Of a DNA stretch of 64,000 nucleotides, positions 1-59,324 are shown one piece after another. The notes beneath the pieces are model-generated. The model was not told the DNA's origin, ran no database searches, and saw only the letters and a program-made list of their open reading frames with translations. Position 1 is the stretch's first letter. Each line of letters opens with the position of its first letter. The DNA is taken from the NCBI RefSeq assembly GCF_036365525.1, contig NC_090392.1:58033247-58097246 (forward strand), read 5' to 3'. This DNA is from Heterodontus francisci. Taxonomy: Eukaryota. The position numbers and the translations under genes are program-made.

Positions 1-2259
1 CCACTTTCAAAAAGTCGCGCTGAAGCTTTGACACATGCGCAGAGGCCAACGTGGCGCGTTGCCCGAGGAAGACGACGTAACGCGATGACGTCATCTACGC
101 ATGCGCAAAGCGGTCCAGGCAAGACGGACCGCAGCGCATGCGCAGAGGGCATGAGACCGTCTGCGCATGTGCGCACTGCGGCGCATCCTGATGACGTCGG
201 CGATGACGTAGCGTTGTCATGAATTACTTTGTAAGTTAAAAGCACTGTCTATGGAAGAGTTGAGAAACATGGCTGAGCAGTGTGGGATCACTGAACATGC
301 TAAGGCTAGTAAGTCTGAACTCCTAAGACTAGTGGCCAACCATTTTTCCCTTGAATCTGAAGAAGCAGAAACAGGGTTAGAAATAGACTCCAACAGGGTA
401 TTGCTAGCAAAGCTATGATTGGAACAGAGGAAACTTGAATTAGAAGACAGGGAAAGAGAAAGGGAAAGAGAAAGACAGGAGAGAGAAAAAGAGAGACAGG
501 AGAGAGAGAAAGAACCTTTCAGAAAGAACATGAAGAAAAAGAGAGAGAGGAGAGAGAGAAAGAGAGAGCCTTCCAGAAGGGCTGTGAAGAGAGAGAGCTG
601 AGGCAGCTTGAGTTGACTAGGGGGTGACAGAGTGACCCCAGTGAAAGCGTGGCCAATATGGAGGATCGTAATTCAGGGCTGGGTAGAGAATTGTTACAAA
701 ACAAGGCAGTTAAATTGGCCAGCTGAAACTTGGACTCTCCTGTTACAAAACAAGCTAACAGGAAAAGCCCATGAAGTTTATTCCCTGTTGCCAGATGAGA
801 GTTCATCAAATTATGAACTGACAAAAAATGCTATCTTTGGGGCATATGAGTTAGTACCGGAAGCCTTTTGACAAAAGTTTAGAACCCTCAAGAAGCAAGC
901 TGATCAAATTTACTTGGAGTTTGAGAGAAATAAGCAGGTGGCTTTTGACCAGTGGCTGAGGGCTCTTAAAGTACAGCTCAGCTATGAAAACCTCAGAAGG
1001 TAATTTTGCTAGAGGAATTTAAAAACTCTCTCCCACTCTCCATAAAGACACATGTAGAGGAAGTTCATAAAGCCTGGCAAGTCACAGTTCTGGCTGATGA
1101 GTTTGCTCTCATCTATAAGTCAGTTTCACAGGGGAAAACCTTTCCTAGTCATCCCCATAAATCTGAAAAGGACAAAGGGTGGGAAGGTGATAGAAGCTCA
1201 AGCAGTCCTGGGAGAGAAAGAAAAGAAGGAGACAGAGGGACCCCTCCTCCAGCCAAAAAAAAATGTGCTGTAAGTAGGAGTGAGACCCGGAGACCTGTGT
1301 GCTTCCATTGTAAAAAGGCAGGACATCTAAGAGCTGACAGCTGGAAACTATGGGGAAAGCCTGTAGGGTTCATCAGGGCACACTCACTCAGTGAAGGAGA
1401 AGGGTCCTGATGGAACGCACAGCTGAACAAGCTATAGCTTTAACTGCAGCAGTAGTAAGTCCCAGAAAACATACTGCTGTAGGTGCAGGAAAATTTAATA
1501 GGATTCCTGAAGGTTAGCAGGATTTTGTGTCTGAAGGGAGAGTAACCCCATACTCCTCGAGTGGGGCAAGCAAGCCCATAGTAATCCTCAGGGACACAGG
1601 GGTCACTTGATCCCTTTTACTGGGAAAAAGCCTGACTTTTCCCCCAGAGAGTGCAGTAAGTACCAGAATGGTGGTGAATGGTATTGGAGGGCAGTGTACG
1701 TCTGTACCTTTACATCAGGTGCACGTGGAGCGCAACCTAGTTTTGGGACCGGTGATTGTAGGGATTGTCCCTAGTTTGCCTGTAGACGGGGTTGACCTGC
1801 TCCTAGGTAATGATCTGGCAGGGGCGAAGGCGGTAGCTTCCCCAGTAGTGAAAGCGGGACCGCAGGAGGTCAGAGAGACACGGCAGTGGCAGGAGATGGT
1901 CCCCTGCAGTTCCTCTGCATGTGTAGTGAATCGGGCCATGATCAAACGAGTTCCCCCAGAGGACACTGAATTGGCACTGCAGGCAGATGACCACGAGATT
2001 TTCTTTGGAAAGTTAGAAGACCCAGGGAATGAATCAAATGATTTTTTCCTAGCTGAGGCTCAGCGAGCTGTCCCATACTGAGAGAGTTAGTACAGGCTGT
2101 CCAGTCTGAAATTGAAGCAGAGGGAGTCCCGAACTGCTACTATTTAAAGAATGAGGTACTGATGAGGAAATGGAGTTCTCCTCACAGACCTGAGGGCAAG
2201 GAGTGGACAGTGGTTCACCAGTTAGTGGTGCTGCAGAGGTAGTGGAGGGAAATATTAAG

Positions 2260-3137
2260 TGTCATGAAAACCCCACCTGCCAAGAATGAGGCATATTAAT
2301 TTCATCATATGAACATTAATTTTAAACTGTTGCTGGAAGGAAGAGATGACTTGTTTAAAGAGATCAGTAGTGGCTGGAAAACATTTGCATACTAAGAGAC
2401 AGTGCCTGGAGACAATAGAATGACTCCCTGATCCAATTAACTCAAATGGATTTTTATCACCAGACATTGAATGTGCAAGAAAGCCAGCATTCCAGGGTGT
2501 CTGCTAAGATGAAGAATCCGTAAACACAGGACTTTGTTAAAATAGCTAGTCACATGACTAACCTGTTGGCCCAGGTTTTTGTTTGAACTGCTCACAACAC
2601 AGTTTGGGTCAACTGAACTTGGAAGAAGAGAGCCTCTCCCCAGGCTAGCTCTCTCTCTCATGAATCTCCGGATCCACTAAAGTCACTTAAACCTCAAAAG
2701 AGAAAAGACTCCTATATCGAAACAAAAGCATGCACTGGGCCCCAACGAAATGGCAAGACTTATTGGCAATCAAAGAACTCAAAAGACCATAAATAAATCT
2801 CAGCTATTGCCGTAAATGTTTCCCCTTTATTCTTTCTACTTTTCTGTTCCTATCGGTGTGTGTGTTTATCGCTTATGCACGCTCGTGTGGTCGCGTCACG
2901 TATTTGTAGCCGTTAACTGAATTGGAGTTTAAGGTTAATAAACTTTCACCTTTCTTGTTTAAATCTAAGAAAACCTGTCTGGTTGATTTCTTTGCCTTAC
3001 AATTGGAGAGCAGTGAACAAGGATTCACTGAGGGGGAGCTGAAAAACACGATGTTTTTAAAATTAAACCCTGTTATGGTAAAACCAGGCAAAGGCTGAGA
3101 GGGAACCCGTAGACCCCTTTCTCACCTGGTTGTAACG
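2260..3137 (+). mobile_element. Solo LTR nested inside the integrase zinc-finger region of the host Gypsy element
   Basis: Starts TGTCATGAAAACCCCACCTGCCAAGAATGAGGC and ends CTGGTTGTAACG. Both ends are similar to the LTR at 4208-5170 and to the reverse complement of 56870-57775. Host reading EIL(R)...MAHE resumes after it. Confidence 0.8.
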
Positions 3138-4207
3138 TAAAAATGGCCCATGAGATTACAATGACTGTACATGTCAGTATACGAAAAACCAAAGCCCAGG
3201 TAAGATAGCAGTTTGACTAGCCAAAACTCCACCAAGATGTGGTGGAGATCTGTAGGAGTTGCCACATGTGCCAGGTTGAGAGGAAGCCCCAACCTACAGT
3301 GAAATCTGCACCCCTAAATCCTGTACCGGTGTTTGGAGGACGCTCCAGCAGAGGGCTGGAGAATTGTAAGAGACCACTGCTGAGAACAAAAAGGGACAGA
3401 CAGGCACAAGACAGGCAAAATGTTAGAGAGGAAAAGGGACAAAGGAGACAGGTTAAAGGTGATCTGAGAGGATTCCCAGATGAAAACCCCTACTGTCCGC
3501 TCAGCCAACCCCGAAATGTTGGAAAACTTAGACCCCACATCCTCCTATGTAAATGCAGACACCAGAGGCACCCCACCAGAGTTGCTAATAGCATTTACAG
3601 AAACCTTCAGAGACAAAGAGAGTCCTCAAGAGGGCAGAGAAACTGTGAGGGTGATGCCTCACCTAGTTGCAGTGCCGCAGTGGAGTGCAGTGGAATCGGG
3701 ACAAATACCTGCAAGCAGGAATGTCCCAGAGAACAAAAGGAAGATTAGCATAGTCAGGAGAAAAGGGAAACAACCATCCCCTAAAGTGAAAAGAACATGC
3801 CTGACTCATCAGGGCATTGAAAGAGAGATCAGAGTGAATCCACCCACTGCAGACTCTGATGAGCAGAACTCCAAACCAGAGCTAATTAAATCTAACCCTT
3901 CCCCTGCAGACAGGCACACGAGGCAAACCTCCCCAAAAATCATATGTTTATTGGGATGCCCATTCCTAACGTATTGCAGGCTGATAGTGAAGAAACTTCA
4001 AACCCCTTTGGGCAACACAAAACTACCTCAAGGGCAAAGGGGCAGTTTAAAGTAGCACTGCTACAAAGGAAAGACAGGCTGTAACAATTTTTAGGATTTC
4101 TGAATGAATGAGAGAACTGCATGTGTGGTTTCCTGTACTTTCTCTTCTTTCTATTTTTATAATGAAATATCCCCTAATATCGCATTTCATTCCACTGGAA
4201 ATGGAGG

Positions 4208-10735: not shown

Positions 10736-10806
10736 ATTCTAAAGCTGCTGAAAACTGTTCATATTGATTATTACAACAGAGTAACAGATTCCTATTTGAA
10801 ATTCGC

Positions 10807-12322
10807 TTGTTTAGAGTCGCTCTGAACAGGCTCCAGAAGCTGGCCGAGCGCGTCTACCCTGAGGCACAGTGTGGCTTTCGTGCAGAGAGATCGACCATTG
10901 ACATGCTGTTCTCCCTTCGTCAGATACAGGAGAAATGCCGTGAACAACAGATGCCCCTCTACATTGCTTTCATTGATCTCACCAAAGCCTTTGACCTCGT
11001 CAGCAGACGTGGTCTCTTCAGACTACTAGAAAAGATTGGATGTCCACCAAAGCTACTAAGTATCATCACCTCATTTCATGACAATATGAAAGGCACAATT
11101 CAACATGGTGGCTCCTCATCAGAGCCCTTTCCTATCCTGAGTGGTGTGAAACAGGGCTGTGTTCTCGCACCCACACTTTTTGGGATTTTCTTCTCCCTGC
11201 TGCTTTCACATGCGTTCAAATCCTCTGAAGAAGGAATTTTCCTCCACACAAGATCAGGGGGCAGGTTGTTCAACCTTGCCTGTCTAAGAGCGAAGTCCAA
11301 AGTACGGAAAGTCCTCATCAGAGAACTCCTCTTTGCTGACGATGCTGCTTTAACATCTCACACTGAAGAGTGCCTGCAGAATCTCATCGACAGGTTTGCG
11401 TCTGCCTGCAATGAATTTGGCCTAACCATCAGCCTCAAGAAAACGAACATCATGGGGCAGGACGTCAGAAATGCTCCATCCATCAATATTGGCGACCACG
11501 CTCTGGAAGTGGTTCAAGAGTTCACCTACCTAGGCTCAACTATCACCAGTAACCTGTCTCTAGATGCAGAAATCAACAAGCGCGTGGAAAAGGCTTCCAC
11601 TGCTATGTCCAGACTGGCCAAGAGAGTGTGGGAAAATGGCGCACTGACACGGAACACAAAAGTCCGAGTGTATCAGGCCTGTGTCCTCAGTACCTTGCTC
11701 TATGGCAGCGAGGCCTGGACAACGTATGCCAGCCAAGAGCGACGTCTCAATTCATTCCATCTTCGCTGCCTCCGGAGAATACTTGGCATCAGGTGGCAGG
11801 ACTATATCTCCAACACAGAAGTCCTTGAAGCGGCCAACACCCCCAGCTTATACACACTACTGGGTCAGCGGCGCTTGAGATGGCTTGGCCATGTGAGCCG
11901 CATGGAAGATGGCAGGATCCCCAAAGACACACTGTACAGCGAGCTCGCCACTGGTAGCAGACCCACCGGCCGTCCATGTCTCCGCTATAAAGACGTCTGC
12001 AAACGCAACATGAAATCGTGTGACATTGATCACAAGTCATGGGAGTCAGTTGCCAGCATTCGCCAGAGCTGGCGGGCAGCCATAAAGACAGGGCTAAATT
12101 GTGGCGAGTCGAAGAGACTTAGTAGTTGGCAGGAAAAAAGACAGAGGCGCAAGGGGAGAGCCAACTGTGCAACAGCCCCGACAAACAAATTTCTCTGCAG
12201 CACCTGTGGAAGAGCCTGTCACTCCAGAATTGGCCTTTATAGCCACTCCAGGCGCTGCTTCACAAACCACTGACCACCTCCAGGCGCGTATCCATTGTCC
12301 CTCGAGATAAGGATGCCCAAAA
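10807..12322 (+). mobile_element. RTE-clade LINE, 5'-truncated, with an uninterrupted 488-aa RT-to-C-terminus ORF (10807-12273)
   Basis: PEAQCGFR, FIDLTKAFD, GVKQGCVLAPTLF, LFADD, RRLRWLGHV and a C-terminal CxxC...H motif, followed by a short 3' UTR. Confidence 0.92.
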
Positions 12323-13650: not shown

Positions 13651-13699
13651 ATGCAACTCCTGCTGAAGCTGCTTTTGATTTTACAAACCGGAGTTCAAG
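13651..13699 (+). CDS. IgSF receptor exon 1: signal peptide MQLLLKLLLILQTGVQ(G)
   Basis: AAGATG start, hydrophobic core, consensus donor AG|GTAAGT, phase 1, in frame with the next exon. Confidence 0.85.
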
Positions 13700-14366
13700 G
13701 TAAGTTACTCTGATCAGAATTATGTAACAACTTGGTGCTGGGATGTGCATTTAGAAGCATTCAATATTCTTTTAGAATAGTTCAGCATTATATAGATGTA
13801 GAACTGCAGAGAGAGAGAGTCAAAGTGACAACCATACATTTTGATCAAGATTTCTGTTCAAAGCCCCACATCACAGTGATTGGGTTAAGCCTCCACTGTA
13901 CTACTAATATTTAGGCTGAGATAATGTTTTGCATTATTAATTGTGAATCCTCACACTGTGATAAGAGCTAGATTATTTAAAATTGTGTAGATCTTGAGTA
14001 AAAGTGGGTCATTCATTGAACAGTGTTCAAGAGTATAGCAGCTATTGCACAGAACTGGAAGCAAAGATCTCCCATAGATTATTATGGTGACATCCTGAGC
14101 AGTCTGTGACAGTTTGTGTAAAATAAAACAAATTCAAAACAGGAAGAAGCTATTACTGCAGAATACCAGGTTTCAAACTGTTGCATAGTTTAGAATTAAA
14201 TCTGTGAAAATACAAGTACTTTAACAGTTTTTAAACATTAGATCCGATTGGGAGGATATCTCAAATTCCACATTGTTTAAATTGAGTTTTTGATCTTTCT
14301 CATTTAAGTTGAAAGAACTATTAACTGAAACCAAAATGAAAATGACAAACTTATTTATTCCATCAG

Positions 14367-14714
14367 GTGGCCCGTGGATTGGGGAGATAACCCAGCCGCA
14401 GCTGGTCAGTGTTTTGAAAGGAGCATCAGTCAAAATAAACTGTACATTTATTTATAATGGATCTGCTGATCACTGGGTCCATGCAGTCTGGTACTGGAGA
14501 TCTCCAGGGCTCCCTGATACTCGCTATGAAACGAAGAACCTGTCCTGTACTCCTGACATTCCACCAGGCGGTTTTAGCCGCTGTGTTGTTTCACTGATGA
14601 TCGAAGATGTTTCTTTTGATCACTCTGATAATAATTATACCTGTGCAGTGAATGTACCAACAGTCTATCCGCCGTTAGAGAGAAAAGGACCAGGTACACG
14701 GATACAAATATACG
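14367..14714 (+). CDS. IgSF receptor exon 2: V-set domain with germline J-like strand (KGPGTRIQI)
   Basis: Acceptor TTATTTATTCCATCAG and donor G|GTAAAA, phase 1/1, 348 nt. ITQP...GASVKINC...WYW...SLMIEDV...YTC...GPGT. Confidence 0.92.
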
Positions 14715-14814
14715 GTAAAATGTTTGCCTATCTTGTAATAAGTAGAAAGACATTGATGTTCTATAGATTTATAGTATTGTGTATTAATTATGGATGCAAC
14801 AACATTTGCACCAA

Positions 14815-16016
14815 CACAAACACAGAAAATGCTGGAAATGCTGGAAGTATTCAGCCTGGAGCTCGGTGACCAGTGGTGTTTCGCAGGGATCTGTTCTGGG
14901 ACCTCTGCTCTTTGTGATTTTTATGAATGACTTGGATGAGGAAGTGGAAGGCTGGGTTAGCAAGTTTGAAAATGACACGAAGATTGCTGGAGTTGTGGAT
15001 AGTGCGGAAGGCTGTTGTAGGTTGCAACGGGACATTGACAGGATGCAGAGCTGGGCTGAGAAGTAGCAGATGGAGTTCAACCTGGAAAAGTGTGAAGTGA
15101 TTCTTTTGGAAGATCGAATTTGAATGCAGAATACAGGCTTAAAGACAGGATTCTTGGTAGTGTGGAGGAACAGAGGGATCTTGGGGTCCATGTCCATAGA
15201 TCGCTCAAAGTTGCCACCCAAGTTGATAGGGTTGTTAAGAAGGCATATGGTGTGTTGGCTTTCATTAACAGGGGGATTGAGTTTAAGAGCCGCGAGGTTA
15301 TGCTGCAGCTCTATAAAGCCCTGGTTAGACCACACTTGGAATATTGTGTTCAGTTCTGGTTGCCTCATTATAGGAAGGATGTGGACGCTTTAGAGAGGGT
15401 GCAGAGGAGATTTACCAGGATGCCGCCTGGACTGGAGGGCATGTCTTACGAAGAAAGGTTGAGGGAGCTAGGGCTTTTCTCATTGGAGCGAAGAAGGATG
15501 AGAGGTGATTTGATAGAGGGGTACAAGATGATGAGAGGCATAGATAGAGTGGATAGCCAGAGACTTTTTCCCAGGGCGGAAAGGGCTATCACCAGGGGGC
15601 ATAATTTTAAGGTGATTGGAGGAAGGTTTCGGGGAGATGTCAGAGGTAGGTTCTTTACACAGAGAGTGGTGGGTGCGTGGAATGCACTGCCAGCGGTGGT
15701 AGTAGAAGCAGATACATTAGGGACATTTAAGCGACTCTTGGATAGGTACATGGATGATAGTAGAATGAAGGGTATGTAGGTAGTTTGATCTTAGAGTAGG
15801 TTAAAGGTTCGGCACAACATTGTGGGCCGAAGGGCCTGTACTGTGCTGTACTGTTCTATGTTCTATATGTTCTACTCAGCATGTCAGGCAGCATCTTTGG
15901 AGAGAAAAACAGAGTTAGCGTTTCAGGCCTGTGTGATTTCATCAGAACTGATCAGTATTTGCAGCATTTTCTGTTTTTGTTTCAGGTTTTCAGCATCCGT
16001 AATGTTTTGCTTTTAT
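14815..16016. mobile_element. Penelope-like (PLE) inverted fragment, interrupted by a CR1
   Basis: PLE terminal sequence on both strands, a degenerate hammerhead motif at ~15912-15950 (-), and a perfect 14-bp TSD AACATTTGCACCAA at 14801-14814 and 16017-16030. Confidence 0.75.
14843..15872 (+). mobile_element. CR1 (HER1-type) LINE 3' fragment
   Basis: [14 protein letters not shown]...DTKIAG; ORF 15120-15779 LYKALVRPHLEYCVQFW...FFTQRVVGAWNALP; tail GGGCCGAAGGGCCTG...TTCTATGTTCTAT. Confidence 0.92.
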
Positions 16017-17129
16017 AACATTTGCACCAAACCATTTATGGAATCATACACTATTAACAAGCATGCACAATGTAGAACCAGGTTATTCAGGTATTGCTAT
16101 CTAGAAGAATGCAAGAGGTAAACCAGTGCTCATGTTTTGAATGATGTTCTCTGAACATGGTTTGTGATGACTTGTGCTGTAGAGTCAATGGTACGTATGA
16201 AGGCCATCACTGAAAGGCATTCTGTATCTCTTCCACTTTCATTGTCTATTCTATTCATACCACAAGCCAGTTTTACAATTGTTAAGACATGTCTAGTTAA
16301 GAAGACTGGGTTAGTTATAGTTTTAGACTTGCTTATCTTACCTCCATGTTCAGTTACATTTCCGAGATTTTGTCCTCTAAAGCCTTGCAGTTCCATTATT
16401 CCAGTACATGACCAATAATATAAAATCAATAATCCAATCAAATAAAAAGACTGCAAATGTTGAAAATACACTGCATGTGAGTCAGTATCTGTAAAGAGAA
16501 GAACTAGGTTAATGTTTTGGTTCAAACGCTTAATCAAAATCAAGTCATATAATCAACAAGCTACAATGAAAATGGACAAATGTGTGATAAATAGCAAGTT
16601 GTAAAGAAATATCCAACAGGAGATTCCAAATATGAGACTTGTCATGTAAAGAGTACAGCTTCAGGCTTAGGGGACATGCCAGGAATCGCAAGCTGTTCGC
16701 AGTGCCTACTGACATCATAAAATACTGATCCTGATACAGAAGGAGTGTTACACTAATGAATAATAATTAATGAATGCTGTCAAGCTGATTTATTGCATTA
16801 CATATACAGATGGAAAACTCATTTCTCAGAGAAAGTAATGAATTTTAGCTGCATTGGCAATAAGCCAATGCAGTTGTTCAAAAGAGCAGTGTTAGCAGTG
16901 TTGATGACAAATTGTCGTTATACATAGATTTCTATAATTATTTTGGCTAATTATTTCCTTTTGAGTTTCGTACCTCGCAGTGTATTATTTGGGTTATGTG
17001 TCATTTTCTATTAGTTCTCCATTGACTGTCCAAGAGAACATTTTATTTTATTGGTTACATTATTCATGTCTGTCGCATATAAAAGGGTAGATTTTCCACG
17101 TCCTTGCCTATCGTGAGGTATTCTGTACA

Positions 17130-17838
17130 ATGCGTATCTGAGTTCACACCAAATTCCATATACCCATCATCCTTGTGCTTGCTGACAAACATTGGTTCCC
17201 AGTTCATCAATGTCGTGAATTCAAAATTTTTATACTTTTCTTTAAATCCATCCATGCCCTCACCCCTTTCCAACTCTGTAACCTACTCCAGCCCAACAAC
17301 ACTCCGAGAACTCTGCATTCTTTCAATTCTGACCTATTGTGCATCCCTGAGTTGCTTTGTCTCACCATTGGAAGCTGTGTTTTTAGCTTTCTAGGATCTA
17401 AGTTCTGGATCTACAAGATGCACTGCAGCAACACTCCAAAGCTCCTTCAACAGCATCTTCCAAAACCATAACCTCTACCACTTAGAACAACAAGGGTGGC
17501 AGATGCATGGGAACACCACCACATGCAAGTTTCTCTGTAAGCCATACACCATCCTGACTTGGAACTATATCAGCGTTCTTCACTGTAGCTGGGCAAAATT
17601 CCTGGAACTCCCTCCCGACCAGCACTGTGGATGTACCTATACCACATGGGCTGCAGCAATTCAAGAAGATGACTCACCACCATCTCAAAGGGTTATTAGG
17701 GAGTGGAAATAAATGCTGGCCTTGCCAGTGACACTTACATCCCATGAATGAATAAAAATATCCTCCCTAAATTTCTCCAACTCTCCTCTTTTGAAAAACT
17801 TCTCAAAACATGCCTCTTTGACCAAGCCTTTGGTCACC
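17130..17838 (+). mobile_element. L2 3' fragment interrupted by another LINE 3' end (17410-17757)
   Basis: L2-type HWFPV...FKI...YNPxRTL (ORF 17175). The insert ends in CCCATGAATGAATAAAA. Confidence 0.55.
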
Positions 17839-17867
17839 TGATGATACAAGGCTAGGTGGCAATGTAA

Positions 17868-18369
17868 TAAAAACAAGAAATGCTGGAAATACTTAGCAGG
17901 TCTGGCAATATCTGTGGAGAGAGAAGCAGAGCTAACGTTTCAGGTCAGTGACCCTTCATCAGAACTGGCAAATATTAGAAATGTAAAAGGTTTTAAGCAA
18001 GTAAAGTGGGGGTGGGGCAAGAGATAACCAAAGAGAAGATGTTGATAGGACAAGGTCACAGAGAATAACTGACCAGAAGGTCATGGAACAAAGGCTAATG
18101 GTATGTTTGCTCCGTGACCTTTTGGTCAGTTATTCTCAGTGACCTTGTCCTAGCAACACCTTCTCTTTGGTTATTTCTTGCCCCAACCCCGCTTTACTTG
18201 CTTAAAACCTTTTACATTTCTAATATTTGCCAGTTCTGATGAAGGATCACGGACCTGAAACGTTAACTCTGCTTCTCTCTCCACAGATATTGCCAGACCT
18301 GCTGAGTATTTCGAGCATTTCTTGTTTTTATTTCAGATTTCCAGCATCTGCAGTATTTTGCTTTTATTT
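17868..18369. mobile_element. Palindromic Penelope-like element insertion (arms ~17866-18092 and 18106-18332)
   Basis: Long imperfect inverted repeat with a 13-nt spacer and a hammerhead motif on each arm. 15-bp TSD TAGGTGG(C/G)AATGTAA at 17853-17867 and 18370-18384. Confidence 0.85.
18232..18268 (+). ncRNA. Minimal type I hammerhead ribozyme motif (PLE-associated); mirror copy at ~17930-17966 (-)
   Basis: AGTT-CTGATGA-AGGATCACGGACCT-GAAAC-GTT-AACT: conserved core, stem I AGTT/AACT, palindromic AACGTT stem III. Confidence 0.7.
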
Positions 18370-20077
18370 TAGGTGGGAATGTAAGCTGTGAGGAGGACAC
18401 AAAGATGCTGTAAAGAGATATGAACAGGTTAAGTGAGTGGACAACAAGGTGTCAGATGGAGTATAATGTGGAGAAGTTGAGGTTATTCGCTTTGGTAATA
18501 ATGAGAAAAGCAGAATTTTTTTAAAGACATGAGATTTGTAAATGTTGATGTTTGGAAGGACTTGGGTGTACTCATACAAGGAACACAGAAAGTTACCATG
18601 CAGGTACAGCAAGCAATTAGGAAGGCAAATGACATTTATTGCAACTGGATTAGAGTACAAGAATAAGGAAGTCTCCCTACAATTGTACAGGGCTTTGGTG
18701 ACACCACACCTGGATTACTATGCACAGTTTTGGTCTCCATATTTAAGGAAGGATATACTTGCATTGGAGGCAGTACAGCGAAGGGTCACTCGATTAGTTC
18801 CTAGGATGAGAGGGTTGTCCTTTGACGAGAGGCTGAGTAAATTGGGTTTATACTCTCTGGTGTTTAGAACAATTAGAGGTGATGCTAGATACAGGACTTT
18901 TATTTCAATTATTGATAGGTAACAGCTGAAGAATCTATATATTATATATTAATGCATGCTTTCCTAGCTGAAAAGAGATTCAAGTGAGTTCAGCTCTTGT
19001 AATCACAGGAACTAAGGGAAAAAGAGCATAAATTCACACACGTGTTTATGAAGTTGATCTCCATCGAATAAGGTTGGTATTGAAAGAAAATATTCAACAG
19101 ATGATTTAACCATTCATAAATATTTTGAATCAATAAATGCTCTCTCCAGCTTTAAAATGCAAGATGCCAAACAATTTTATGTATATGTAACAAGCGTATT
19201 ATATTCAGTTTATGTCAAAACAAACTTGGTGAGTGCTACTGAATTTCCAGTCATGTCATCAAAATTGAATGCTGTGAAAAGATGAGTGGAAAGAATTTTT
19301 CAAAGCCAAGTAGCATTGACGGGGCCCTTGCTGCAGCAAATGGTTTATTGGAAAATTGCAAATGATTTTCTCTCCATTTCCACTAATGAGTGGAAACCAG
19401 TGTCAGTGTACTGCAGTTTTCCGATAAGCCTCCTGCTGTGTTACGCTCTGCCTTTTGCACAAGGCTTTGGGAATTCCTGGGCACCTGTTGTTGCTAATGT
19501 CACTGGAGCAGAACTACAAGATGTCACATTAGGGAAATTTAACACAAATTACTGTTCCCAGGCCAAGTATGAAGTATGTAACATAAGGTGACAGAAATAT
19601 ATCATCTGCAGTACTCAAAGTACCTTATATAGACTTGGCTTCTCTTGAAATTTGTCACAGAGAAGAATTTTAATGTAGACTGATGAACATATACTCATTT
19701 AAGACAAGCTTCTGCTACCACTAATCCACCATCAAATTGTCTTAATGTGACATTCGTGTAACCCAGTAGGTAAAGTAGAGCATAGGACTATGGTATGTGA
19801 GTTACTCTGATTAGATGATTGATATTGAGAAATCCCAGTATAAGATCCTGATCGAGCAGTGATCTAGAGTGACATTAGTGTAATTCTCTAATATATATTT
19901 TATTTTTGATTCAATCTAGGGAAAAGGCTACTTTAACTAACGATGTGTCTCTATTTTACCAAAATAACCGGCACTGTGTGAAAGTACAGCAAAGTATTTT
20001 TATATATAGAATTAACTATTCATTCAACTATAAGTGATTTTACATTATGACACTCAGTACATTTTCAGAATGTATTC

Positions 20078-20180
20078 ATCAGATGAAAGGTCACACAGAC
20101 CTGAAATGTTAACTGCGTTTTTCTCTCCAAGGGCGCTGCCTGACCTGCTGAGTATTTCCAGCATTTTCTGTTGTCGTTTG
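20078..20180 (+). mobile_element. PLE terminal fragment with mutated hammerhead core
   Basis: CAGATGAAAGGTCACACAGACCTGAAATGTTAACTG...CCTGCTGAGTATTTCCAGCATTTTCTG. Confidence 0.65.
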
Positions 20181-20256
20181 TGATGTTAATAAATCTTATT
20201 CACAGAGAAGGATAAAGTCTTTATAGTTCCATATATTATGTTTTGTCCTCTCTTAG

Positions 20257-20559
20257 AACTTCCCGAAGTTTCCACTGTGGATGGTGCTTTAGTTGCCGGA
20301 CGTCAGTACAACCTGACCTGCTCTGCCAAAGGGTGGTACTCTGCAAATATTTCCTTTACTTGGGCATGCCATGGAATAAACAGCTCGACAAACATTACTA
20401 CACTGACCTCAAAAAGAACTGTTAATGGTACACCTGTTGCCACCAGCCAGCTTGAGATCATTCCTAAAGTGACAGACCATGGAGCTATTTGTAGATGTCA
20501 GATTAGTCATGTGACTTTCAGACAGCCAGTATTAAATCAGATCAAACTAGATGTTATGT
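20257..20559 (+). CDS. IgSF receptor exon 3: C1-like (C1/C2 hybrid) domain
   Basis: Acceptor TTTTGTCCTCTCTTAG and donor T|GTAAGT, phase 1/1, 303 nt. LTCSAKGWYSANISFTW...NGT...SQLEIIP...DHG...CQISH...LDV. Confidence 0.92.
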
Positions 20560-21199
20560 GTAAGTATGATCTTTAGAATTTTAAATACTTAGTATTATTC
20601 TCTGTAATGGTAAAGATTCTGACTTTAACATTTGACCATCTCTTATTGTTCCTATTCCGTGTTTACAACCAGCACATATGCACCCTTATCTGTGCCATGC
20701 CTATGCAATCTGAATTTCTCTGTGTCCATTTTGGTTGATATGCCAGACCTGATCCCATTACTTCTATCTCCCTTTTTCTTTCTCTTTTCTTTACCCATCT
20801 TGGGCCCTTCTCTCCTGTCTTCCTTCCTGTTATTCAGTCACACCTCCTTTCATTTTTCCCCTCTCGGGTACTTTATTCAACCGAATCCCCTATTACTTTA
20901 TCTTCCTACTCTCCAGCTGCTCTTACCAAGCTTGAGTCTATCTTAGACAAACCGACAGCTTCTCGCTCTCTGCCTCTTCCAACAATCTCTGGAGGGCACA
21001 TCGAGACATGTCATTGCCTCCACATGAGCAGCAAACCCAATTACCCTATCCTGTTTTCTTTGCCTATATTTGCACCCAATCCATTGCTGAGGGCTAATGC
21101 TACTAACTTGCTTCCTGTCCTGCTCACTCTCCTTCCGCTGACCTGGTGGACTGTGCCAGCAGATCAATAATCCTCTCCCTCCAAAATATATTTTCATTT

Positions 21200-23750
21200 G
21201 TGAACAAGGCCCTTGCTGTACATGATCCTATTGTGGGTGATTGCTTAGTTTAGTTATACAGCACTGAAACAGGTCCTTCGGCCCACCGAGTCTGTGCGGA
21301 CCATCAACCACCCATTTATACTAATCCTACACTAATCCCATATTCCTACCAAACATCCCCACCTGTCCTTATATTTCCCTACCACCTACCTATACTAGGG
21401 GCAATTTATAATGGCCAATTTACCTACCAACCTGCAAGTCTTTTGGCTTGTGGGAGGAAACTGGAGCACCCGGAGAAAACCCACGCAGACACAGGGAGAA
21501 CTTGCAAACTCCACACAGGCAGTACCCAGAATTGAACCCGGGTCACTGGAGCTGTGAGGCTGCAGTGCTAACCACTGCGCCACTGTGCCGCCTTGACTTG
21601 ATGGCCTTGATGGAAACTTGGGTAACACCTTGCCCATTACTGAAACCTGTTCACCTGGCTATGCCTTCCACCACCTGCCACAATCGCAATGTGGCCCTTA
21701 TCACCAAATCTCACTTAGGTCTGTCCACTTACATCTCTGGCACCTTTTGCCGCATCATCTTATTCTACTTCTCTTGTCTCTCCTTTAAAATCTTAATGCT
21801 GTACCACCCATCAAAGCCCCACTCCATTCCTCCTTCAGCTTTTGCACCAAGCTGATTCTCATCCTTGATGATTTCAATCTTCATCTCAATAACCCACCTT
21901 GATCTCTTAGTTCACTATTCTCCTGTCTTCCCTTAACCTCTCCTATCCATATTCACAGCTACCAGCTCAACCTTGCCATATCATGTGGCCTCACTATTCC
22001 CGCCATCTTATTCACAGACCAGGTCATTTCTGATCACTTCCTAGTATCCCTCACCACTCACATGCTCCTTCTACTTCCAACCCCTCTTCCTTTGGTGTCT
22101 ATTTTTTGAAAATAACTTCCCTCTAAGGCATTTCAATGGCACTTTTAAACTCCCAACTATCTATCCTTTGGCCCTCCATTCGTCACAGTGCTTCTGGAGT
22201 TATAGATCTGTTCAATCACATCCTCAGCTATGTCATAGATGCCATTCTGCCAGTACTCTCTCCCATCTTAGTTGTTCCTCCTGGTACAGTGCCTATCTTC
22301 ACTGCTTTAACTCCGAGGCACACTCACAGACGCACAACTGATTTAGCTATGCATTGCCAAATCTCACATCATCACCCCCTCCTCAAAAAACCCATCCATG
22401 TCTTTGCAACTTACTATCCCCATCTCCAACCTCCCTTTCCTCACCAAAGCCTTAGAACATGTTGCTTCCCACATCTATGCCCATCTTTCCAACAATTCCA
22501 TGTTTGACCCTGTCCAAATGCATTTCCACTCCTGCCAGAGCACTGAAACAGGCCATATCAAAGTCAGAAATGACATCCACTGTGACTGTGATGCACAATG
22601 CCTCCTCATTCTCCACAACCTCACTGTGACCTGTGACATGGTCAACCACATCATATTCCACAAAGCCTCTCCTCTGTTAACCAATTGAATTAGACTGCCC
22701 TTACCTTTTCCCACTCTTACCTACTCTACACAATCATGTTTAGGGTTCTCATGGATCTACCCTTGAACCCCTCCTATCTTTCATCTACATGCTGCTCACT
22801 ACTGACATCATCCAAAGAAATAGGTTCCATGTGTGCACAACAACACCCAGCGTTACTTTACCACCTATCACATTACCCCTTCATTACATTTTTGTTGTCA
22901 GACTAACCTGTCCGTGATCCAGTTCTGGAAGAGCTGCAACTTCCTCCAGTTAAATATCTGAAAGACTGATGCCATTCTCTTTGTCCCCATCACCCACCAC
23001 ACACCCATCAAAAACTCTGTTCCTTTTCCACCAATTCTATCCCCGTCCCTGGTCACTGTCTCAGGCTGCAGCAGATATTTTGTATCCTGGTGTTCTATTT
23101 GATGCTGAGCTGAGCTTCCAACCCTATAACCTCTCTATCTCCAGCTTCATAATATCACCTGTATCTGCCTTTGTCTCAACTCATCTGTTGCTGAAACCCT
23201 CAGTCTTTTGTTCCTTCCAGACTTGACTATTCAAACGCTATTTTGACCAGCTTCCCATTTTTTGTCCCTTCATTAACTTGAGAACATCCAAAACTCTGTC
23301 ACATGTATTCGAACTCATGCTTACTACCGCTCTCCCATCACCCCTCTGCTCAGCAACCTACATTGGCTCCCAGTCCACCAACACCTCAATTTTAAAATTC
23401 ACATCCTCATGTTCAAATGACTCCATAGCCTTGCTCCTTGTAAATGTTTTTCAGCCCTACAACCCTCCAAGAACTCTACATTTCTACAATTCTGGCCTTG
23501 TACATCCCCCACTTCCTTCGCACCACTGTTGGTGGCTGTGCCTTCAGTGTTCTAAGTCCTAAGCTCTGGAATTCCCTCCCTAAACTTCTCTGCCCCTCTC
23601 TCTCTCCTTCTTTAAGGCAATCCTTAAAACCTTTCAGTTGCACTTCCTAATATTTTCTTCTTTGGCTCGGTGTCTGTGTTTGGCTGATTATACTCCTGTA
23701 AAGCACCTTAGAATGTTTTCCTGTCAGAAATGCCCTATCTAAAGACAAGT
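21200..23750 (+). mobile_element. Decayed L2-clade LINE (endonuclease, RT and 3' fragments)
   Basis: LMALMETW, DDFNLHLN, PISNLPFLTKALEHV, QPYNPPRTL, AFSVLSPKLWNSLP. Pyrimidine-rich with many indels. Confidence 0.7.
21245..21592 (-). mobile_element. HE1-type SINE inserted in L2
   Basis: Near-identical to 6279-6638. Confidence 0.9.
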
Positions 23751-23835
23751 TCTTGTCAACTAGCTAGACTGTATCTAGATATGTGTTAATTATATTATTT
23801 TGATGTAAAATTAAGTGTATATTATCTACTATTAG

Positions 23836-24144
23836 ATGGGCCACAAGATCCCATAATAATGTACAGATTGAACAACAGAAACGATTACCATCCTGGGACC
23901 AGTAGCTCCATTCTCGTCCCTACTGACTCATTCCTGGAACTGAGATGCTCTGTGGATAGTAACCCAGCCTCCACTGTGATCTGGGTGAAAGACACTGAGA
24001 TGTTACAATTACCAGCTGGATCAAATAGTTCAAAAGTAGAGTTCAGAAATTTCCAGTCTGAAGACAGCGGAGTCTATTGGTGTATTGCAAACAACATGTA
24101 TGGCTGGAGAAACGCAAGTGTTTGCATAAAACCTGAGAAGGAAG
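23836..24144 (+). CDS. IgSF receptor exon 4: C2-set domain (Siglec/CD22-like)
   Basis: Acceptor CTACTATTAG and donor G|GTAAAT, phase 1/1, 309 nt. The junction gives LDVMYGP; LELRCSVDSNP...W.K...EDSGVYWCIANNMYG. Confidence 0.92.
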
Positions 24145-24216
24145 GTAAATAAACATCGAGTTCTCAATGTCTGTTGCAGAAGAACTACTTTTAGAAAATG
24201 GGAGCACAGATTAATT

Positions 24217-24811
24217 GGGCTGGATTTTACCAGCCCCCTGATGTTGGGGGTTGTGGTGGGGGTGCCTGTAAAACCTGCCATGGGCCTTGACGCTGGGAAG
24301 GCCTGGTCCCATATTACTGACCTTGGCGAGGCTTCGTCGTAGGCCCGCCACTCAACAATGGAACCTCAATTTAAATAATTAAATACATGGTAATTAATGC
24401 ATAATCACTTACCTTGTACTGACAGCCATCCCACACAGATATTCTGGCCGGTTGCCAGACCTCCATTGCTTTTGGGTCTCCGTTCGTGATCCGAGGTGGA
24501 ACACTGGTGGGGAGGGGGAAACGGTTGGGAGAGGTGATTCAAAGTGCTATTAAAATTTTATTTTTCCTTTTTGTAGACCGGAACCTTTAAAAATTTAAAT
24601 GGCCCTGAAAGGCTTGAAGCCCTTTAAAAATGGCGCCTGTGCGGTGTCATTGGACACTGTTGCTGGGGACAGAGCGCCTGCCCCCTCTACGTCATTGGGG
24701 GCGGGCATTCCGCCCCCTCCATGTAAATGAGCTGCCGTGCTAGATATCTCAGTGGCTCAGCGGCGCACATCTCTCACGTGCGCTGCACCATTTTTGAAAC
24801 TAATTCAGCCC
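24217..24811. mobile_element. PIF/Harbinger-like MITE
   Basis: TIRs GGGCTGGATTTT / TAATTCAGCCC flanked by ATT/ATT. Confidence 0.65.
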
Positions 24812-25286
24812 ATTGTGTAGCATCTTCTTTCTTGGTCTCAGAATTTGTAGGTTTGTAATATTTGTTCTACTTTCAACTACACTTGTATAGTAAATAACAC
24901 ATCTCATTCCCAAGACATTATCAATGGCTAGCAACTTACAGATTAAAGCATTTTGGTCCATGATTGACACCACTTGTTTTTAGCCATAACACTGGTACTT
25001 TGCTTTTGCACAGTGCTTTTTAATGTTGGGCAAAGTAAATGGAAAATTAACATGCTGCAATTTTATCCATTAACTGCATTGCACATCAGGCACCAAACTT
25101 GCTTTGGAATCTGAAGACAATGGTTCTGCGGTTGTCAAAGAAAAATTAAAAAATTGCATTGATATAATATTTTTTCATGTCTAACAAAAATATCTGCAAG
25201 TGTTTGATACACAGTAAATTGTGTTTAGATGTTGTGACTGTTGTCATTACTTTTGATTTCATTATTATTTATTACTTCTTTCACAG

Positions 25287-25388
25287 GTCCTTTGTTGCTT
25301 CCCATTCTAGTTCTACTCATTGCTGTCACTGGATTCATCGCTGTGGCAACAATATACTTTTGTCTGATTTGGAAGAAGCAATTTAAAG
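25287..25388 (+). CDS. IgSF receptor exon 5: transmembrane segment (G)PLLLPILVLLIAVTGFIAVATIYFCLIWKKQFK
   Basis: Acceptor TTACTTCTTTCACAG and donor G|GTAAAA, phase 1/1. Uncharged hydrophobic stretch followed by basic stop-transfer residues. Confidence 0.9.
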
Positions 25389-38079: not shown

Positions 38080-39860
38080 TCCATTAGGGACCAAGGGGGA
38101 AATCGGTGGGTGGATCCAGAGGACATTGGTAGGATGTTGAACGAATACTTCACATCTGTCTTCACCCAAGAGAATGAGGATGTAGATATGGAACTCAGAG
38201 AGAGAGACTGTGAGGTTCTTGAGCAAATTGTCATAGGGAGTGACAAGGTATTGGAGGTTTTGGCAGGCTTAAAAGTGGACAAATCTCCAGGTCCGGACGA
38301 TTTGTGTCCCAGGATGCTGTGGGAGGTGAGGGTGGAGATTGCAGGGGCTCTGACTCAAATTTTTAATTCCTCTCTGGCCATGGGCGAGGTGCCAGAGGAC
38401 TGGAGAACAGCTAATGTGGTCCCACTATATAAGAAAGGTTGTAGAGATAAGCCAGGGAACTACAGACCAGTGAGTCTCATGTCAGTGGTAGGGAAACTGT
38501 TGGAGAAAATTCTGAAGGAGTGAATCTATCTCCACTTGGAGAGGCAAAATTTGATTAGGAATAGTCAGCATGGCTTTGTCAGAGGGAGGTCATGCCTAAC
38601 AAATTTGATTGAATTTTTTGAGCATGTGACCAGGTGTGTAGATGAGGGTAGTGCAGTTGATGTAGTTTACATGGATTTCAGCAAAGCCTTTGACAAGCTC
38701 CCACATGGGAGACTTATCAAGAAAGCAAATGCACATGGGATACAGGGTAACTTGATAAGGTGGATTCAAAATTGGCTTAGCTGTAGGAGACAGAGAGTGA
38801 TGACAGACGGCTGTTTTAGTGACTGGAAGCCAGTGTCCAGTGGCGTACCACAGGGATCTGTGCTGGGTCCCCTATTGTTTGTCATTTATATAAACGACAT
38901 AGATGACTATGTGGGGGGTAGGATCTGTAAGTTTGTGGATGACACAAAGATTGGCCGAGTGGTTAACAGTGAGGTTGAGTGTCTTGGGCTACAGGAATTT
39001 ATAGACAGGATGTTCAAATGGGCAGAAACGTGGCAGATGGAATTTAACCCCGAAAAGTGTGAGGTGATACACTTTGGAAGGAGTAATGTGACACAGAAGT
39101 ATTCAATGAATGGCCTGACACTGGGAAGTTCCGAGGAACAAAGGGACCTTGGCGTGTTTGTCCATAGATCTCTGAAGGCAGAAGGGCAGGTTAATAGGGT
39201 GGTGAAAAAGGCATATGGGACAATTGCCTTTATCAATCGAGGCATAGATTACAAAAGCAGGGAGGTCATGTTGGAGTTGTATAGAACTTTGGTAAGTCCA
39301 CAGCTGGAGTACTGTTTGCAATTCTGGTTGCCACATTACAGGAAGGATGTGATTGCACTGGAGGGGCTGCAGAGGCGATTCACCAGGATGTTGCCTGGGA
39401 TGGAACATTTAAGCTAAGAAGAGAGGTTGGATAGGCTTGGGTTGTTTTCGCTGGAGCAGAGAAGACTGAGGGGTGACCTGATCGAGGTGTACAAGATTAT
39501 GAGGGGCATGGACAGGGTGGATAGGGAGCAGCTGTTCCCCTTAGTTGAAGGGTCAGTTACGAGGGGACATAAGTTTAAGGTAAGGGGCAGGAGGTTTAAG
39601 GGGGATTTGAGGAAGAACATTTTTACCCAGAGGGTGGTGATGGTCTGGAATGCACTGCCTGGGAGGGTGGTAGAGGCGGGTTGCCTCACATCCTTTAAAA
39701 AGTACCTGGATGAGCACTTGGCATGTCATAACATTCAAGGCTATGGGCCAAGTGCTGGCAAATGGGATTAGGTAGACAGGTCAGGTGTCTTTAATGCATC
39801 GGTGCAGACTCGATGGGCCAAAGGGCCTCTTCTGAACTGTATTATTCTGTAATTCTGTGA
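38080..39860 (+). mobile_element. CR1 LINE, 5'-truncated; ORF2 in a single frame with two in-frame stops (38521, 39415)
   Basis: ORFs 38110, 38536 and 39427 share one frame. KSPGPD, NYRPVSL, QHGF, DFSKAFD, GVPQGSVLGP, FVDD (YADD-equivalent), then a CR1 tail. Confidence 0.93.
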
Positions 39861-48207: not shown

Positions 48208-51200
48208 CAACCCCAATGCCCCACACGTAACGAAGTGGCCAACGCATCTCAGCTCTGCGACACCGGGAGCAAAGACACGTCTGGCGCACCTGAGCTCCGG
48301 GAGACCGGGAGCTGTGATGTTTTCGAGGAGGAACAGATGGAAGCAGCTGAGGACAACCCAATCCTCTCTGCCTACAAGACCCCCCCGATGTCACCCGAGC
48401 GGCACAAACCCTGCATGAAAAATCAGGAGGGGTTTCTGAGCCCAACCAACGTGAAACTGCTTGCGCATACGATGGGTATGCAGGAACATCCCGAAGGGGA
48501 AGGACTGGGACTAGCGAGGACAAATGGTATGGGAAGCAACAACTAATTTTTAGTAAAAAATGGGTGTAAGAATTGCTTCCATTAATGTGCATAGCATTAA
48601 ATCTACTACGCGATGTGTTTCAACCTTGGATTACCTTGCCAAGGTCAAAGCTGACCTACTGTTTCTGCAGGAGTGTGGAATACCACACCTCAGCACCTAC
48701 AGGCAGTGGTCGCGATGGTGGTCCCACGGGCCATCGATCTGGTCGGGGGGTAATGACTGCCGTTCCTCCGGCCTGGGTATTCTGCTGCGGGGAGGTAACT
48801 TCACCATCTCCGAAGTTAAGGAGGTGGTGGGCGGCCGCCTCCTCGTAGCAGACGTGATGTACAACAACGCTCCGCTCCGGTTGATCAACGTGTACGCCCC
48901 GGTACAACACAGCGAGCGGCTGACCGTCTTCCAGCAGCTCCCACTGCTGCTGGCGACGTCCAGGCCGGTCATCCTAGGCGGTGACTTCAACTGCATCATC
49001 GATGCGGCTGGACGATCCGGCAGTGACGACAGCAAACTGGACGCTACGTCCAGATTCCTAGTAGAAACAGTTAAGGATGCCAAACTGCACGACGTCTTCA
49101 GCAAACCTGCAGATGGAGCGCAGCGCAGATACACATGGTCAAGATCGGACGGGTCTGCCCGTTCCAGGATTGACTTCCTGTTTGTGTCCCGTGCTGTCAC
49201 GGTCGGATCCACCGACGTCAAGCCGGTGTTCTTCTCCGACCACTGCCTCTTACTGGCCGACTGTCACTTACAGGACGACCAGCGGGTTGGCAGAGGGACG
49301 TGGAAGCTCAATACGACACTGCTGACCCCAGAGAACGTTGAGGAACTCAAAAGGGATTACAAAGGCTGGAGGACCGTGAAACCCCTCTTTGAGTCTCCAG
49401 TTCACTGGTGGGAAGCGATAAAGGAGAACACCAAGAGGTTCTTCATCCACAAAGGTGTTCAGAAGGCGAGAGAGAGACAGAGGGAACTGTCCCGACTCCA
49501 GAAAATTATGCAAAATCTACTCCGGTTGCAGTCAATGGGGGTCGAGGTCAAGGAGGACCTCCAAGAGGTGAAGAGCCAGCAGGCCTCGCTCTTTGCCAAG
49601 GAGGCCTCCAAGATCATCTTCCGGTCCAGAGTCCGCTCCATCGAGCAGGATGAGACGTGCTCGCGTTACTTCTTCCAAAAGGTACACAGAGAGAGCTCTG
49701 TTATCAGCAGCCTGAAGGAAGAAGATGGCTCGGTAACGTCTTCGCAGTCCGACATACTAAGGATCAGCAAATCCTTTTATGCTGGGCTGTATGACGCGAA
49801 GCCCACAGACAGCAGAGCCTCCCAGTCCTTCCTGTCATCTATCACAGAGGTCCTAGATGACGGCAGGAGGGAGAGACTGGACAAGCCGCTAATTCTGGAC
49901 GAGCTGACAAAGGCCGTCGAGTCTTTCGAGACGAGTAAAACCCCCGGGAACGACGGCTTACCGGTCGAGTTGTACTCGGCCCTGTGGGACTGGGTCGGCC
50001 CGGACCTGCTGGAAGTATACAAGAGTATGCTCCTGGCCGGCAGCATGTCAGAGACCATGAGAAAAGGCATCATCACCCTCATTTACAAGCAGAAGGGGGA
50101 GAGGGCAGAAATCAGAAATTGGCGGCCCATCTCACTGCTTAATGTTGATTACAAGATTCTGTCCAAAGTCATAGCCAGTCGAGTCAAGTCTGCTCTGGAG
50201 TTGGTGATTCACCCCGATCAGACCTGTACTGTACCCGGCAGGAAGATCTCTGATAGTCTCGCGCTACTCAGGGATACGATCGCCTACGTACGGGACAGGA
50301 GGGTGGACCCCTGCCTCATCAGCCTGGACCAGGAGAAGGCTTTTGACAGGATATCGCACACCTACATGATGGACGTGCTTTCCAAAATGGGGTTTGGGGA
50401 GGGAATCTGCAATTGGATCCAACTGCTCTACACAAACATCAGTAGCGCAGTGTCAATCAACGGGTGGGAATCTGAAAGTTTCCCGATCAAATCTGGAGTC
50501 AGACAGGGCTGTCCTCTGTCCCCGGTCTTGTTTGTTTGCTGTATTGAACCCTTTGCTGAGTCTATTAGGAAGGATGCGAGCATAAGAGGGGTGACAATCC
50601 CAGGCAGCGGAGGCACTCAGGTCAAAACCTCCCTGTACATGGATGACGTCGCCGTCTTCTGCTCGGATCCGCTGTCCGTGCGCAGACTGATGAGCATCTG
50701 CGACCAGTTCGAACTGGCCTCGGGAGCCAAAGTTAACCACGGCAAGAGCGAGGCCATGTTCTTTGGGAACTGGGCTGACCGATCCTTTGTCCCCTTCACC
50801 GTCAGGTCAGATTACCTGAAGGTGCTGGGGATATGGTTCGGAAGTGCCGGGGCGTGCACCAAAACATGGGAGGAGCGAGTAGCCAAGGTACGACAAAAGT
50901 TGGGCATGTGGGGGCAGCGATCTCTCTCCATTGTGGGTAAGAACCTGGTCATCAGGTGCGAGGCGCTCACGTTGTTGCTCTACGTGGCGCAGGTCTGGCC
51001 CATACCCCACTCCTGCGCCGTGGCAGTCACCCGAGCCATTTTCCGCTTCGTCTGGGGATCTAAAATGGACCGGGTCCGGAGGGACACGATGTTCAAATCT
51101 CTGGACATGGGCGGGAAAAATGTACCCAACGTGGCCCTCATCCTGATGACCACCTTCGTGTGCGGCTGCATCAAGCTATGTGTAGATCCCCAGTACGCAA

Positions 51201-59296: not shown

Positions 59297-59324
59297 ATCC
59301 AGCTAATGTATCCATGGAACTAAG
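59297..59324 (+). CDS. Probable cytoplasmic micro-exon of the IgSF receptor, (D)PANVSMEL(R)
   Basis: Strong acceptor TTGTTATTTCTTTCTGCAG and donor AAG|GTAAGA 28 nt apart. Open in the phase-1 frame left by the TM exon, in non-repetitive context. Confidence 0.5.

Follow-up and report, generated by a model that had tools for sequence, protein, structure and literature searches.

The 64,000 nucleotides of horn shark (Heterodontus francisci) DNA analysed here, called the window, lie at positions 58,033,247 to 58,097,246 of contig NC_090392.1 (assembly GCF_036365525.1), on a chromosome that we label C22 (the other chromosomes mentioned are C8, C10, C17, C23, C24, C29, C34, C39 and C46). They carry a gene for an immunoglobulin (Ig) superfamily receptor with three extracellular domains, D1 to D3, of V, C1 and C2/I type. 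A first-pass annotation of the window had joined five exons with canonical phase-1 splice sites into a stop-free frame of about 370 residues; splicing and translation return that frame (370 amino acids, 0 stops, GT at 5/5 donors and AG at 4/4 internal acceptors), and all the sequence motifs quoted in the annotation are found in the translation. The same exon joins are present in the RefSeq models XP_067909978-982 and in orthologous models of other sharks, rays and bony fishes, all of them predicted, and because they recur in this way they are not the product of chance. Position 25388, where the annotation let the gene end, is followed by a tail exon in the window and by four more beyond it (Table 1). 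D1 is 100% identical to that of the predicted H. francisci RefSeq isoforms X1-X4, named 'sialic acid-binding Ig-like lectin 13', and of the uncharacterised X5, an automatic Siglec name of the kind that had been foreseen. Judged by its sequence and by these models, the gene is real, intact and mis-annotated as a Siglec.

Table 1. Exons of the horn shark gene (window positions unless C22 is given) and features around it on C22
Feature	Position	Strand	Remarks
Leader exon	13651..13699	+	ATG, 16 codons + 1 nt; equals the N-terminus of XP_067909979
D1, single-exon V domain	14367..14714	+	Cys42/Cys109 B-F; Cys77/Cys89 on D and E strands; GxGT G strand; no Siglec Arg
D2, C1-set domain	20257..20559	+	Cys154/Cys213 plus Cys170/Cys211
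D3, C2/I-type domain, nearest to the C2 domains of Siglecs	23836..24144	+	
Transmembrane (TM) exon	25287..25388	+	Helix without charged residue
First cytoplasmic exon	59297..59324	+	After 34-kb intron
Four further tail exons, beyond the window	C22 ~58,105,8xx; 58,114,3xx; 58,114,4xx; 58,116,9xx-58,117,08x		Encode motifs at residues 396, 431, 481 of isoform X4
Arg-type partner gene	C22:57,983,5xx-57,997,310 (L018-L019)	-	~50 kb upstream, head-to-head
IgLON exon	C22:57.547 Mb		Best single-stretch matches OPCML and neurotrimin (NTM)
Horn shark gene	C22:58.05-58.12 Mb		
PMP22/MP20-family exon	C22:58.395 Mb		
JHY	C22:58.47 Mb		
GH35 then GT43 genes	C22, past JHY		

Isoform X4 (520 aa) ends at about C22:58,117,085, and its tail matches the tails of orthologs; in the AlphaFold model the three Ig domains and the TM helix are confident and the tail is disordered. 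The last exon of isoforms X1 and X2 lies about 140 kb further (C22 ~58,259,120, +), past a CBS-like gene on the opposite strand, matches nothing in the tails of orthologs, and probably reflects a mis-join or a read-through. Among the other RefSeq models, X3 uses a donor within the V exon, so that the J-like strand loses its final seven residues, and D3 is skipped in X5. Of ten sequencing runs listed as containing the D3 exon, none is recorded as RNA, a result that speaks neither for nor against expression. Retroelement open reading frames (long terminal repeat-like fragments and LINE reverse transcriptases, recognised by eye) occupy window positions 988-4052, 10768-12270, 38080-39768 and 48557-51964; two of these stretches sit within the 34-kb intron.

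Anatomy and relatives of the three domains

D1 is a V domain with a B-F cysteine pair and without the Siglec F-strand Arg, as the first-pass annotation had read it. It matches Pfam V-set weakly (20.8 bits, cut-off 26), and modelled on its own it has a mean predicted local distance difference test score (pLDDT) of 89 and no C'' strand. In 26 aligned members of the family described below the B and F cysteines are invariant and the E-strand cysteine (C89) is nearly so; together with C77 the latter forms a second pair, which the annotation did not mention and for which we infer a disulfide from the strand register. The J-like strand is borne out in its GxGT and fails in another mark, since a Lys occupies the position at which antigen-receptor J segments carry Phe or Trp. 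No recombination signal-like site was found in window positions 14200-15000, in keeping with a non-rearranging gene.

Siglec V domains have an intra-sheet B-E disulfide and have lost the F-strand Cys. In a comparison of 13 D1s with seven Siglec V outgroups, the F Cys is kept in 13/13 D1s and the Arg is present in 0/13 (it is seen in 4/7 Siglec V domains); the E-strand Cys of D1 stands at L-4, two residues earlier than in Siglecs (L-2), and D1 is about 10 residues shorter. The F-strand Arg is described as the essential residue of the Siglec V domain in PMC5624926, and D1 would probably not bind sialic acid.

Outside the family, the best match of D1 was a CD28H-like V at C10:82.297 Mb (42.6 bits), followed by other V exons, including those of Ig and T-cell receptor (TCR), at up to 31.9 bits and Siglec V at up to 25.3 bits; an hhalign comparison with the C10 V gave a probability of 93.8% (E 1.7e-7). 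The C10 V carries EIPPP and GxG motifs. In the FG region of the family D1s we read YxCxVxIP and mostly GxGT, with a shorter spacing than in the motif of the CD28H third complementarity-determining region (CDR3), YxC[E/K/Q/N]xxxEIP with GxG, of which E-I-P is a mark (PMC11599192). The C10 V and a C1 exon that follows it belong to a non-rearranging VJ-C1 gene of its own at C10:82.29 Mb (L258:663-1253, L257:2498-2860, -), of which no TM or tail was found. Some 23 kb away is a V-C-V gene of the B7 family, which we take to be HHLA2/B7-H7; a complex prediction of D1 with the V of that B7-family gene scored 0.16 (mark 0.34). A further V-C1 gene lies at C17:89.34 Mb (L009), with V and C1 exons less than 1 kb apart, and looks SIRP- or PRARP-like by eye.

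Other comparisons of D1 were less specific. Pfam Ig_NFAM1 matched weakly in 4/19 D1s (best 26.4 bits, cut-off 27.2) and not in that of the horn shark, a genome search for the NFAM1 family gave 0 matches among 19 candidates, and the CD22-type first domain PF24518 matched 1/19 D1s at E 0.16. Structure searches returned tied generic V/I-set matches (IL-18R-beta, LRIG, TCR V and Ig light-chain (IgL) V, Z 11-12.7) with no Siglec among the matches listed; sequence searches of the PDB were swamped by antibody light chains, and the ESM Atlas led to mixed V-set clusters at 0.91-0.93.

D2 is a C1-set domain, as had been claimed (31.1 bits, cut-off 21, over 24 for C2-set_2), and lies above the C1-set cut-off in 7/7 family members scanned. 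Outside the family it comes closest to C1 domains whose best single-stretch PDB matches are B7-H6 and TAPBPR (66.8-69.2 bits), and on Siglec D2 it reaches at most 37.8 bits; its own top PDB match, by summed domains, is UrIg2. The C1 exon of the C10 gene scores 55.7 bits, no better than the C1 of IgL or of class II of the major histocompatibility complex (MHC-II). Among the top 150 C1-set matches in the genome none lies on C22, Ig C1 clusters and MHC-type C1 matches being found on C8, C23, C34, C46 and C29. D3 matches Pfam Ig_3/I-set and gives no C1-set match; the Siglec/CD22-like character attributed to it is upheld by 23/23 matches outside the family (25 in total) to Siglec-cluster C2 domains, on C39 or on contigs repeating its scores, within a comparison set that was gathered with D3 itself and contains no CADM D3.

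Because the best outside matches differ by domain, the three domains do not all lead to one known family. For the whole model, Foldseek ranks MAG Ig1-3 and CD22 d1-3 first, and Necl-4 has the best TM-score in the list (0.41/0.64). The second domains of CD22 and MAG are C1-type, and V-C1-C2 is the classic Siglec arrangement (PMC5624926), so that a C1 domain with Siglec-like marks need not mean a mosaic. The mosaic receptor of the first-pass annotation thus survives in that the three domains have their best outside matches in three families, and not in the need for a mosaic, given that Siglecs themselves are V-C1-C2.

Cytoplasmic tails, paired forms and range of the family

The X4 tail carries three tyrosine motifs (TIYAVV, VPYADI and SEYSAV, in the order of Table 1) that fit or approach the consensus of the ITIM (immunoreceptor tyrosine-based inhibitory motif) as given in 10.1101/2021.06.11.448072. 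Among 10 elasmobranch orthologs the tail is the best-conserved region (62% mean identity, against 53-57% for D1-D3), and the three tyrosines are invariant. The first motif also fits the consensus of the switch motif (ITSM).

Family members divide by tail and TM segment. Among 45 of them (50 rows minus one alternative isoform and four without a clear TM), ten have a TM Arg without a motif, none has both, 29 have a motif without Arg and six have neither, counts that run over related, predicted models, some probably truncated, and are therefore not independent; one further (eleventh) Arg form escaped the counting rule. A TM Arg with a short tail marks the activating LILRs (LILRA) that couple to FcR-gamma (PMC10679719). 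Sharks, coelacanth, paddlefish, gar, bowfin and arowana have Arg short-tail forms, a distribution that calls for no fewer than three origins or losses on the starred branches of the ectodomain tree. The ectodomains of the Latimeria ITIM and Arg forms (XP_064424813 and XP_064424814) are 97.5% identical, which suggests a recent conversion or duplication.

In the horn shark the partner gene has V, C1, C2, Arg TM and short-tail exons, and its V exon is interrupted in frame by a 354-bp insert that contains stops and shows a target duplication of 7 bp. This insert is young and SINE-like; counting itself, it has 43 copies over 280 bp within 1.06 Mb, with identities of up to 96.6%. The family thereby has the features of immune paired receptors: long tails with ITIMs in some forms, short tails with a charged TM in others, on ectodomains that are related, and clustering, here as the head-to-head pair on C22. 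The first-pass annotation did not include the inhibitory-type tail, the partner with its Arg or the synteny given below. A third V exon of the family, a degenerate fragment with a stop, lies at C22:58,011,675-58,011,812 (-; L020), and a lone intact V-set exon with extra cysteines and no clear family at C22:57.937 Mb (L034:3647-3943, +), 50 kb past the partner gene.

Full-length V-C1-C2 relatives were found by phmmer with the 520-aa model (best 150 of 1,500 hits, 20 of which were looked up) and by two profile searches. Named members of the V-C1-C2-TM layout come from sharks, rays, Latimeria, Erpetoichthys/Polypterus, Polyodon/Acipenser/Huso, Lepisosteus, Amia, the elopomorphs Albula and Aldrovandia, Scleropages (arowana) and Arapaima, so that the family is not the chondrichthyan one first supposed. 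Their automatic names include Siglec-5, -6, -8, -12, -13 and -14, MAG-like, sialoadhesin-like, SHPS1-like, CADM1/2-like, VCAM1-like, tapasin-like and Ig-kappa-like. No named member from tetrapods, chimaeras, lungfish or clupeocephalan teleosts is among the best 150 of the 1,500 hits, of which several are unnamed, and loss in those lineages is suggested. On D1 the family is well separated: with a profile that many members had helped to train, the full-length members among 221 stored proteins score at least 59.8 bits and non-members at most 28.0. When the profile is built from bony fish and coelacanth alone, the shark D1 still reaches 76.0 bits, and the next non-member 40.7. No description of the family was found in the literature searched. 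Catalogues of VJ-C1 genes may mention members (Ohta et al. 2019 in J Immunol reportedly lists such genes, and Fu et al. 2019 reportedly deals with PRARP), and we estimate that there is roughly one chance in four that the family has been described before.

Chromosomal neighbourhood and comparison with known receptors

Read with a simple exon finder, in one genome only, 1.26 Mb of C22 gives the order IgLON, otoancorin-like gene, lone V exon, broken partner, the gene itself, CBS-like gene, PMP22/MP20-family exon, homeobox, JHY, GH35 and GT43. We take the PMP22/MP20-family exon to be LIM2, the homeobox BSX, and the GH35 and GT43 genes GLB1L2 and B3GAT1; these neighbours presumably correspond to genes of human 11q24-25. 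A second block of this kind lies on C39, where the sole other MP20-type exon match (2/2 matches; 40.090 Mb), an IgLON (40.190) and 4/16 of the genome matches to the CD22-type V (PF24518; 40.45-40.71 Mb, with 0/16 on C22) are all found within 0.62 Mb, much as LIM2, IGLON5 and the CD33-related Siglecs stand together on human 19q13.4. The four IgLON matches fall on four chromosomes (4/4), as two genome duplications predict. The match of the C22 and C39 blocks in IgLON and LIM2 makes the family a likely ohnolog of the block that holds the Siglecs.

Elsewhere in the region, a multi-exon otoancorin/stereocilin-like gene (no Pfam match) lies at C22:57.72-57.80 Mb (+; L056-L063). The link to IGSF6 and human 16p that it might suggest was rejected: it is on C24, rather than on C22, that the families of METTL9 and mesothelin are located. 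No CRTAM-like V or C1 exon was found in the 200 kb beyond JHY by an exon scan, which is insensitive, and family profiles.

With the classic Siglecs (CD22, MAG, sialoadhesin) and the CD33-related ones the family shares the V-C1-C2 N-terminal layout (PMC5624926), a Siglec-like D3, the LxVxYxP linker, an ITIM/ITSM tail, inhibitory and activating pairs and an IgLON/LIM2 neighbourhood, there on the sister chromosome. It differs from them in lacking the essential Arg, in its B-F disulfide, other E-strand Cys and shorter V without C'', and further in a much more canonical C1, a different chromosome and the Arg of its activating forms. SIRP-alpha, -beta and -gamma resemble it in a single-exon VJ-like domain followed by C1, in paired forms and in a tyrosine-motif tail, and the family profile matches SIRP-alpha over positions 23-225; the SIRP ectodomain is V-C1-C1, whereas the third domain here is C2/I, and the disulfide pattern of D1 is its own. 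The V domains of CD28H/TMIGD2, CD28HL1-3 and NKp30 type are comparable to D1 in the YxC...IP and GxG of the FG region, at the different spacing noted above. The nine CD28 family members have a single V and lie in other synteny blocks (PMC11599192), in contrast to the three domains and the ITIMs of the shark gene. UrIg/UrIg2, PRARP and other VJ-C1 genes have an unsplit VJ exon, a phase-1 split leader and a C1 like the shark gene; UrIg-type genes are linked to the MHC or antigen-receptor complexes, UrIg with only C1 constant domains (PMC12227049 and PMC10751288), and the shark gene, unlike these, has a C2 domain, an ITIM tail and another location. The NITRs of ray-finned fish likewise have a VJ exon and ITIM and TM-Arg forms, on a V-I rather than a V-C1-C2 ectodomain (10.1101/2021.06.11.448072), and NFAM1 is a receptor with an activation motif (ITAM), unlike the ITIM-tailed family.

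Origin and function of the family

We conclude, with fair though incomplete confidence, that the gene, which encodes an intact V-C1-C2 type I membrane protein, is a likely inhibitory member of an old paired family of jawed vertebrates, and that this family is the probable genome-duplication sister of the Siglec cluster. Several results weigh against it. No tree places the family as sister to the Siglecs; the D2 tree lacks resolution, since without constraint the family is split in it (its unity is not rejected, p-AU 0.144, by the approximately unbiased test) and shifts in position between runs, and the ectodomain tree leaves its base open. The higher scores of D1 on the CD28H-like V than on Siglec V, and of D2 on B7-H6/tapasin-type C1 than on Siglec D2, fit domain shuffling as well as ancestral retention. 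Gene order differs between the C22 and C39 blocks, and the single-genome synteny, the non-independent Arg and motif counts and the way in which the D3 set was gathered count on the same side. More tentatively, and as a possibility rather than a probability, the family may be a little-changed survivor: sister to the gene that became the Siglecs, kept on the 11q24-type chromosome in lineages that run from sharks to coelacanth and early teleosts and apparently lost in tetrapods, while the 19q13-type copy rebuilt its V disulfide and gained the Arg of a sialic-acid lectin. The ancestor before the duplication, as part of the same reading and just as tentatively, would have been a paired receptor of VJ-C1-C2-ITIM build whose V and C1 were of antigen-receptor type.

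A rather unlikely course of events is that, at an early stage of jawed vertebrate history, a VJ-C1 module of CD28H/NKp30 type was shuffled onto a Siglec-derived C2-TM-ITIM half. The product would resemble a checkpoint receptor and have a ligand from the B7 family, and the IgLON/LIM2 neighbourhood would reflect the D3-tail half only. This reading draws on the C10 V as the best D1 match outside the family, with its EIPPP and GxG (E-I-P being the CD28H mark in PMC11599192), on the C1 exon that follows this V beside a B7 V-C-V gene, and on the nearness of D2 to B7-H6/TAPBPR-type C1; the family motif YxC-E-V-K-I-P is, however, two residues shorter than that of CD28H, the C10 C1 scores like any MHC-II or IgL C1, and V-C1-C2 was already present in classic Siglecs (PMC5624926). 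Kinship with adhesion molecules of the nectin/CADM/CRTAM type in the 11q23-25 IgSF region, with tyrosine motifs acquired later and a role mainly in cell adhesion, is improbable: the V-C1-I layout is shared, Necl-4 gives the best TM-score and some members are auto-named CADM-like, but a starred clade of nectin-type D2s (100/97; labelled by their motifs, with CADM D2 not surely represented) leaves the family outside, and the ITIM/Arg dichotomy and the near-identical ectodomains of pairs are marks of immune paired receptors. B7/BTN and Ig C1 are separate clades as well, with the family outside each. Least probable is a divergent Siglec that lost sialic-acid binding, comparable to Arg-less Siglecs, for which the automatic annotation would be broadly right. 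The automatic names, the Foldseek ranks of MAG and CD22 and the Siglec-like D3 and tail agree with this; it is largely refuted by the retained F Cys, the missing Arg, the displaced E Cys and the shorter D1, by a supported (starred) Siglec clade that excludes the family (96/90 in the D2 tree, 99 in the ectodomain tree), and by the absence from C22 of any of the 16 PF24518 matches.

If the gene is an inhibitory member of a paired family, as we favour, the analogy with LILR, SIRP and Siglecs suggests that D1 would bind a protein ligand carried by a second cell, that Src-family kinases would phosphorylate the ITSM/ITIM tyrosines, and that SHP-1/SHP-2, once recruited, would damp the activation of leukocytes. 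The short-tailed Arg siblings, which would balance it in other species, would by analogy with LILRA couple to an FcR-gamma-type ITAM adaptor and may counter pathogens that exploit the inhibitory receptor. With its Arg sibling broken, the inhibitory receptor would act alone in this horn shark assembly.

The relevance to antigen-receptor origins that the first-pass annotation saw is indirect: the gene lies on the IgLON-LIM2-JHY chromosome C22, D1 is closer to the CD28H-like V than to Ig/TCR V, and the finding is not evidence on the RAG-invaded ancestor itself. Away from the MHC and antigen-receptor loci, the family adds another receptor of the non-rearranging VJ-C1 kind. Behind many of the labels 'Siglec-12/13/14', 'MAG-like', 'CADM-like' and 'SHPS1-like' that fish genomes carry stands one unrecognised family, which offers an outgroup for testing the origin of Siglecs. 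Paired inhibitory/activating families usually turn over fast and are lineage-specific; to trace one layout, its tail motifs and its Arg/ITIM pairing from shark to coelacanth to ray-finned fish is unusual. Were the survivor reading true, Siglecs, CD28H-type receptors and the C1-bearing relatives of antigen receptors would be tied to one ancestral gene type, and the family would represent a lost checkpoint pair.

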